Source: a virus
Lineage: Duplodnaviria; Heunggongvirae; Uroviricota; Caudoviricetes
Strand: one strand, 5' to 3'
Length of the DNA stretch: 16,911 nt
IMG/VR virus record: IMGVR_UViG_2872164251_000008
How positions within the stretch are numbered: position 1 is the first letter of the stretch; each line of letters opens with the position of its first letter. A program made the position numbers and the translations under genes. Under the pieces are notes generated by a model, which saw nothing but the letters and a program-made list of their open reading frames with translations, made no database searches and had not been told where the DNA came from. Shown here in pieces: positions 5,332 through 5,619 of the stretch.

Positions 5332-5619
5332 GCTTATTTTTCGTCAGATTATTTTTCAAAAAATTCCCGTGCATAAAAATTTGGGGAGGCGTTCGGTGCC
5401 CGGCGGGGTCGGGTTTGTCCTGAAAACGCCCCCCACCCCGTCATACAGCCTCATCAGCGATTGCGGAAACATTCCATAACCTCGCGGTCACGGTCGGTTA
5501 ATCGCTTCGCTGTGATGCGTTCTGCGCGTCCTGACGCTTTATCTTTATGCCCTGTTTCCTGTGTCTTCCATGCGTCACGCTGCCTTATAAGTCCACGGAT
5601 AAGGCGGTTTTGTTCCCGC
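5332..5619. other. HNH-terS intergenic gap; candidate cos/packaging-initiation region (GC-rich, partly symmetric segment about 5385-5445)
   Basis: Position where HK97-type cos sites sit (between HNH and terS). Contains GGGGAGGCGTTCGGTGCCCGGCGGGGTCGGGTTTG. Positional inference only. Confidence 0.3.

Follow-up and report, generated by a model that had tools for sequence, protein, structure and literature searches.

The closest described counterparts of the site considered here are the cos sites of HK97- and P27-type phages. HK97 DNA ends in 10-nt 3' overhangs, and its cleavage is stimulated by the HNH protein gp74 (PMC11331095, PMC9410871); an HNH partner combined with an HK97-type large terminase (TerL) is a signature of cos cleavage (PMC9410871). 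The minimal HK97 site for the small terminase (TerS) spans +15..+29, CTAACCCGATTTTTT, and its A-tract is essential (PMC11331095). End sequencing of SfI phage DNA gave a 10-nt cohesive end, TGCCCGCCCC (PMC3636060). P4 and the cos-type SaPIs, whose cos is copied from the helper, and EcCICFT073, whose cos is read through Rpp, are satellites that also carry a cos and resemble the present case in packaging monomers into small capsids; however, these elements use the helper terminase, whereas an island of the type studied here encodes TerS, TerL, and HNH and is packaged independently of the helper machinery (bioRxiv 10.1101/2022.09.08.507074). The prototype of the capsid-forming PICIs (cf-PICIs), EcCIEDL933, makes its own small capsids, obtains only tails from the helpers HK106 and HK446, and self-packages with its own HNH, TerS, and TerL; mutation of its packaging genes abolishes transfer while leaving the helper unaffected (bioRxiv 10.1101/2022.09.08.507074). 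cf-PICIs spread between species in capsids that they encode and fill themselves, borrowing only tails. The cf-PICI literature that we searched assumes that they have a cos but nowhere gives its location.

The window, i.e., the whole 16,911-nt stretch analyzed here, is an EcCIEDL933-type cf-PICI adjoining phoQ. An integrase-sized open reading frame (ORF) lies at its far end, an ORF at the near end aligns with phoQ of an annotated O157:H7 genome, and no tail genes were found anywhere in it. The segment between the HNH gene and terS, 5332-5619, is present at 100% identity in Escherichia coli O157:H7 chromosomes and was found in 489 of 5,426 complete E. coli genomes. The module runs in the order capsid-protease-portal-connectors-HNH-terS-terL, entirely on the minus strand and with clear Pfam matches for each of these genes, and is listed here together with the 60-aa gene and the IS1 copy:

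8513-9670, minus strand: major capsid protein (Pfam)
7901-8473, minus strand: prohead protease (Pfam)
6688-7899, minus strand: portal (Pfam)
6353-6733 and 6060-6356, minus strand: head closure and head-tail connector (Pfam)
5620-6060, minus strand: HNH endonuclease of the packaging module (Pfam HNH)
5454-5636, minus strand: 60-aa gene overlapping the HNH stop codon (PHROG 3173)
4975-5331, minus strand: TerS, P27 family (Pfam Terminase_4, E=1.3e-23)
3390-4991, minus strand: TerL (Pfam TerL_ATPase and TerL_nuclease)
2627-3394: IS1 within the 3' end of terL, flanked by two copies of its duplicated target CATGCTCTG at 2618-2626 and 3395-3403

The preliminary description had taken HNH, a P27-type TerS, and TerL together as the gene set of cos-type, HK97-like packaging. 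This gene set was borne out by Pfam and by homology to HK97, with 27% identity between TerL and gp2 (E=1e-46) and 39% identity between HNH and gp74 (E=2e-19). Similarity between TerS and HK97 gp1 was undetectable. Compared with the intact O157:H7 copy, IS1 takes away the last 21 residues of TerL: the protein has 533 aa here and ends in ...FQAEHG, whereas the IS-free O157:H7 copy has 553 aa and ends in ...EDFAFDISDSHRQKLEEFSGV. With its TerL truncated, this copy of the island may fail to self-package despite an intact cos, and the site is possibly idle here. In some other cf-PICIs (L002, 2036-4333, and L143, 10289-13681), terL is directly followed by a gene resembling a tape measure, which shares up to 55% identity with the N-terminal region of that of HK97; such a gene is odd in elements said to encode no tail parts, and it is absent from the window.

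The gap of 288 bp that had been singled out as a candidate packaging site is correctly bordered by HNH (5620-6060) and terS (4975-5331), but it is not non-coding throughout, as the 60-aa ORF lies inside it and takes up about half of it. PHROG 3173 matches this ORF along its entire length (E=7.5e-37), and PGAP annotates the ORF as the hypothetical protein WP_000174068.1 in identical E. coli genomes. Its frame and its C-terminus, RDRE[LV]xECFRNR, are retained across Enterobacterales cf-PICIs, and it is missing from the Pasteurellaceae relatives. Codon-position counts among close E. coli variants (15, 18, and 23 variable sites) were uninformative, and we judged the ORF to be real because of its PHROG match and its conservation across genera. 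Since it occupies 5454-5636, the true intergenic stretch is reduced to 5332-5453, i.e., 122 bp. A "hypothetical gene 1792" has been reported in the packaging module of a cf-PICI, and its loss lowers transfer (bioRxiv 10.1101/2022.09.08.507074); the 60-aa protein might be its product.

We also examined the composition and symmetry ascribed to this region. The GC-rich character of 5385-5445 is pronounced: the segment has 68.9% G+C against a window mean of 50.7%, a value reached by 0.55% of 61-nt windows, while the remainder of the gap from 5332 to 5384 has 28% G+C. The partial symmetry reported for the same segment held up only weakly. The best inverted repeats (5384-5393 with 5425-5434, and 5404-5413 with 5431-5440) have 10-nt arms with one mismatch, a length reached in 6 of 300 shuffles. 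Exact complementarity of the arms is lineage-specific, and relatives keep only a G-run opposite a C-run.

We gathered relatives of the locus through their TerS, obtaining 80 IMG/VR loci, 39 loci from bacterial assemblies sampled at one genome per species, and two Pasteurella records, with 58-100% TerS identity to the window. Their hosts include Escherichia, Shigella, Klebsiella, Citrobacter, Enterobacter, Kosakonia, Erwinia, Pantoea, Serratia, Photorhabdus, Aeromonas, and many Pasteurellaceae. When 33 non-redundant cf-PICI loci were aligned, a non-coding element of ~90 bp upstream of terS proved to be essentially indel-free and conserved across Enterobacterales, Aeromonas, and Pasteurellaceae, i.e., three bacterial orders. 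Information content was 1.4-1.7 bits per position in its boxes, compared with ~0.5 in the spacer and both flanks. In the window, reading in the direction of terS, the element comprises the following parts:

5349-5439, minus strand: whole putative cos element, ~90 bp, with G-box, spacer, C-box, and T-rich TerS-site region
5414-5439, minus strand: G-box, GGGGTGGGGGGCGTTTTCAGGACAAA (family form GGGGTGGGGGAGGTTTTCAGGACAAA)
5398-5413, minus strand: spacer, nearly invariant in length and variable in sequence (mean 0.5 bits)
5386-5397, minus strand: C-box, ACCGAACGCCTC (consensus ACCGCCCGCCCC)
5386-5395, minus strand: predicted cohesive end (cosN) of 10 nt, 5'-CGAACGCCTC-3' (consensus CGCCCGCCCC)
5372-5385, minus strand: +1..+14 block after the predicted nick, CCCAAATTTTTATG (consensus CTCAAATTTTTACG)
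5357-5371, minus strand: predicted TerS site (cosB-like), +15..+29, CACGGGAATTTTTTG (cf-PICI form CACGGTGATTTTTTT)
5349-5356, minus strand: A-rich tail, from the alignment

The GGT-GGGG of the G-box is invariant in all aligned cf-PICIs, as is the T-run of the +15..+29 block, while the +1..+14 block is the most conserved part of all (1.68 bits per position). Extra DNA in Pasteurellaceae, amounting to 60-190 bp in some, sits only between the element and terS, and the element is therefore independent of the terS ribosome-binding region.

Conservation of this kind could in principle reflect a transcriptional or RNA signal for terS-terL (a promoter, a terminator or attenuator, or a structured leader), with the packaging site lying elsewhere. 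The element does stand directly upstream of terS within a long operon, and on the minus strand its G-run/C-run pair is followed by AAATTTTT, which is faintly terminator-like. However, a search of the minus strand for promoter- and terminator-like sites found none, the fold of the single sequence was no better than that of shuffles (z=-0.22), the consensus structure of 28 diverse copies reached -2.1 kcal/mol with zero compensatory pairs, and there was no Rfam match at E<=1. Moreover, the inserts in some Pasteurellaceae part the element from the terS start, and the same block is found at the physically mapped ends of P27, phi1026b, SfI, and HK97. A regulatory role in place of a packaging role is therefore very unlikely.

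The preliminary description had noted a loose resemblance to known cohesive-end regions. This proved to be an understatement, as profile comparison gave statistically supported homology to cos sites of the P27, phi1026b, and HK97 types. Using an nhmmer profile of the element, we obtained a match in phiP27 (AJ298298) covering its annotated 10-nt cos-site (E=7.2e-8) and a match in phi1026b across the genome-end junction (E=3.9e-7). The HK97 genome (39.7 kb, both strands) was rotated to make its end junction internal; the best match in the whole genome was the cos junction, on the correct strand, with E=0.017, the next best being 1.8. Taken alone, the HK97 profile match lends marginal statistical support. 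In the Yersinia phage YeP1, the first base of the record is the homologous G in GTCA(A/G)ATTTTT, and the profile match was not significant (E=1.3 at the junction); compared with the viral contig L159, this record is apparently ~10 nt short at the junction, which splits the site.

Direct BLASTN of the gap against GenBank phages returned only the record of phage vB_KppS-Ant, discussed below, and a 1.6-kb contig; the links to P27, phi1026b, and YeP1 emerged only through intermediate viral contigs. Scanning viral contigs with a 15-mer of the element yielded weaker relatives that are true phages (L159, L138, and others), in which HNH, the element, a P27-type terS, terL, portal, and capsid follow in this order; in sequence, they bridge the HK97 and cf-PICI versions of the element. 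These contigs, used as BLAST queries, led to the GenBank phages with defined ends, YeP1, phi1026b, and phiP27.

The three mapped ends fall in the same columns of the element. The annotated phiP27 cos-site (21806-21815) is CGCCCGCCCC, followed by GTCAAATTTTTAC, and the phi1026b record ends with ...GGGACCGCCCGCTTC and starts with GTCAAATTTTCACGC. Positions 5386-5395 of the window align with the P27 cos-site, with the phi1026b right end CGCCCGCTTC, and with the last 10 nt of HK97, CGCCGCCAAA; the +1..+14 block matches GTCAAATTTTTAC at the left ends of P27, phi1026b, and L159-type phages. The cf-PICI consensus ACCGCCCGCCCC|CTCAAATTTTTAC and the phiP27 nick region, ACCGCCCGCCCC then (G/C)TCAAATTTTTAC, differ at 1 of 25 positions (24/25 identical). 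By this homology, the nicks are predicted at 5396|5395 and 5386|5385, with +1 at 5385, and particle DNA in the terS orientation is predicted to have a right end ...GCACCGAACGCCTC at 5386 and a left end CCCAAATTTTTATG from 5385. The polarity of the cohesive end is assumed, by analogy with HK97, to be that of a 3' overhang, and its predicted length of 10 nt follows HK97, the P27 annotation, and the SfI gap (PMC3636060).

Since the window overhang departs from the consensus at 3 of 10 positions, its sequence alone does not fix the nicks. Their exact positions rest on homology and could be off by several bases. A cos within the gap but nicked elsewhere, either at CAAA|TTTTT (5380|5379) or at the center of G-run/C-run symmetry near 5409, as the symmetric segment of the preliminary description would imply, has to be weighed: the position is fixed by homology only, a by-eye alignment with HK97 (CCAAA|GTTT vs CCAAA|TTTT) moves the cut by 6 nt, and the cosN of lambda is centered on partial symmetry. 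However, three independent anchors (the P27 annotation, the phi1026b end, and the HK97 end) share one column in gap-free profile alignments, and no part of the element is less conserved than the spacer near 5409. We therefore consider it very unlikely that the nicks lie at either of these other positions and retain 5386-5395 as the predicted cohesive end.

Downstream of the nick region, conservation follows a different pattern. While the nick region is common to phages and satellites, the +15..+29 block varies between TerS clades, being CACGGTGATTTTTTT in cf-PICIs, CCCGCGAAATTAAAA in P27 and phi1026b, and CTAACCCGATTTTTT in HK97, a pattern expected of a TerS recognition site. Counted from the predicted nick, this block of the window occupies the positions of the minimal TerS site of HK97. 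Because the island TerS is not detectably related to HK97 gp1, the two blocks are equated by analogy and not by homology.

Records derived from packaged DNA of orthologous islands bear indirectly on the mode of packaging. LR881103 (vB_KppS-Ant) is a linear record of 16,548 bp with the gene content of a cf-PICI, and it comes from a particle preparation on Klebsiella pneumoniae DSM 30104 that was sequenced with Nextera XT (PMC8006926). Over 8.3 kb, the record and the chromosomal island of K. pneumoniae ATCC 13883/DSM 30104 show 100% identity, except for 69 bp that are absent from the record; these 69 bp, GAACACGAGGGCGCCAGGCACCACCCGCCCC|CTCAAATTTTTTCGCACGGTGATTTTTTTGAAAATAAA, are flanked by its two ends, and the predicted nick lies 31 nt and 38 nt from their edges. 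Had the packaged molecules been permuted or circular, the assembly would have continued through this break. In our own inference, the absence fits the loss of a few tens of bases from true molecular ends in a tagmentation library, trimming by the depositor being the alternative. In addition, packaged KpCIDSM30104 DNA is reported to form concatemers through annealing of cohesive ends (He et al., bioRxiv 10.1101/2025.02.11.637232). The phage vB_KppS-Ant was published as a filamentous ssDNA prophage; with its capsid, portal, HNH, terS, and terL genes, it is actually the cf-PICI KpCIDSM30104.

In a second, independent record that is also virion-derived, PQ569648 (Klebsiella phage P12620-1; 106.5 kb), the cf-PICI part at 86000-106503 breaks on both sides of the gap: it is joined to unrelated DNA at terS codon 2, and the record ends 2 nt short of the stop codon of the small ORF. 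This record looks like a chimeric assembly. Among 120 IMG/VR and 95 metagenome stretches scanned, there was no pile-up of contig ends at the site. One candidate, a stop of L331 2 nt past the predicted nick, was rejected as a contig end, since it lies at contig coordinate 2410 of 22,479.

These data also bear on headful (pac) packaging, in which the element would be recognized as a pac site but not cut at a precise position. Some pac systems likewise have a P27-family TerS and a short recognition region close to terS. Against this, the virion assembly LR881103 is linear with a unique break, the concatemers reported for packaged KpCIDSM30104 DNA form through cohesive ends (bioRxiv 10.1101/2025.02.11.637232), an HNH partner with an HK97-type TerL is the signature of cos cleavage (PMC9410871), and the element is homologous to an annotated 10-nt cos-site. 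Headful packaging from this locus is therefore extremely unlikely.

Together, the gene set, the conservation, the profile homology to mapped ends, and the break in the virion assembly of an orthologue support the earlier proposal of a cos between HNH and terS. From sequence comparison, we consider it very probable that 5332-5453 carries the cos of this cf-PICI, a diverged member of the HNH-dependent HK97/P27 type. In the mechanism that we propose, the island TerS would bind CACGGGAATTTTTTG at +15..+29 (5371-5357), and TerL, aided by the HNH protein, would nick both strands 10 nt apart within the C-box. Nicking would leave the 10-nt cohesive end 5395-5386 (CGAACGCCTC), probably as a 3' overhang, and packaging would proceed from terS onward into the small capsid encoded by the island, up to the next cos. 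A third subsite would be formed by the G-box, which is conserved and located 28-53 nt upstream of the nick. In this scheme we infer the nick positions, the polarity of the overhang, the binding of TerS, and the role of the G-box.

Comparison with individual phages shows where the site is shared and where it has diverged. Like the element, the cos sites of phiP27 and SfV/SfI lie between an HNH-like gene and a P27-family terS, with an upstream G-run and a 10-nt cohesive end. The window differs from phiP27 by three changes in the overhang (CGAACGCCTC) and at +15..+29, where it has CACGGGAATTTTTTG and P27 has CCCGCGAAATTAAAA. Its TerS shares no more than about 32-37% identity with the TerS proteins of related phages, and the carrier is not a phage but a tail-less satellite with head genes upstream of HNH. 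For phi1026b, the end (...GGGACCGCCCGCTTC) and start (GTCAAATTTTCACGCCCGCG...) of the record correspond column for column to the element; this Burkholderia phage has a distant host, a different TerS-site block, and, upstream of its cos, a gene annotated as holin, not HNH. With HK97, the window shares a G-run, a ~45-nt spacer, a C-rich 10-nt overhang, a conserved block with a T-tract at +24..+29, and homologous TerL and HNH proteins. In contrast, the two TerS proteins come from sequence families that are unrelated, the element does not retain the bases that HK97 TerS contacts (T16, G:C21), the overhangs differ in sequence, and an additional 60-aa gene separates HNH from cos in the window.

Since terS and terL of HK106 and HK446 are 100% identical to those of HK97 over nt 50-600, the comparison with HK97 is also a comparison of satellite and helper. 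The cos had been suggested to be island-specific, which would explain selective packaging. This description fits in part: the overhang, the +15..+29 region, and the TerS family differ from those of the helper, but the nick region hardly differs from the one in P27/SfV-type phages and is homologous to that of the helper. The helper comparison supports a distinct cos as the explanation for selective packaging, refined to the pair of TerS and TerS site; selectivity versus the helper most likely arises from this pair, not from the nick region.

The arrangement of three parts recalls lambda cos (cosQ-cosN-cosB), and the same tripartite logic, with an upstream element, a nick site, and a TerS-binding site by terS, is plausible here; sequence similarity between lambda cos and the element was not established. 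Lambda has a 12-nt 5' overhang, a different type of TerS and TerL, and no known HNH partner. A lambda-type cos was rejected for the window, where TerS is Pfam Terminase_4 (P27 family) and TerL is HK97-like, and no lambda record appeared among the DNA matches. A G-run occupies the equivalent relative place in HK97, P27, phi1026b, and YeP1. The G-box may be an upstream cos subsite with a cosQ-like or protein-docking role. It is kept from HK97 through P27 and phi1026b to all cf-PICIs, yet lies outside the HK97 TerS site. More tentatively, we raise the doubtful but possible idea that it is an undescribed third subsite of HNH-type cos sites, for cosQ-like termination or for docking of HNH/TerL, and, linked to this, that the 60-aa PHROG-3173 protein encoded next to it is an accessory cos-binding factor of enterobacterial cf-PICIs.

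A feature that was expected of cf-PICIs is hereby turned into a base-level prediction, with a cohesive end at 5386-5395, a TerS-site analogue at 5357-5371, and a G-box at 5414-5439. It also offers a hypothesis for the packaging exclusivity of satellite and helper, in which a shared nick-region architecture is combined with a different TerS site and TerS family. If true, the element would serve as a minimal cassette for loading cargo into cf-PICI capsids, as well as a 90-bp marker for finding cf-PICIs and spotting decayed copies.

Several further observations were made in individual loci. Variants of the gap in E. coli (5332-5453 compared with L016, L027, L029, and L059) are mosaic, with halves of two sequence types joined and the switch point lying between the C-box and the T-tract, which suggests recombination at or near cos. 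In Shigella flexneri SFBU1023 (L087, 3990-4010, corresponding to window ~5398-5303), a deletion between two CCCCGCC repeats has taken the C-box, the T-rich box, and the first seven terS codons, so that both cos and the terS start are lost. This locus at first seemed to end at the CAGGAC of the vB_KppS-Ant record; we considered whether this was the trace of a cut and rejected it, as the deletion is one of CCCCGCC microhomology and is unrelated to cutting. Finally, a single genome, that of Pasteurellaceae bacterium Macca (L108-L115, L124), contains at least nine TerS matches with the same element, and in several of these loci an additional ~150 bp separates the element from terS.
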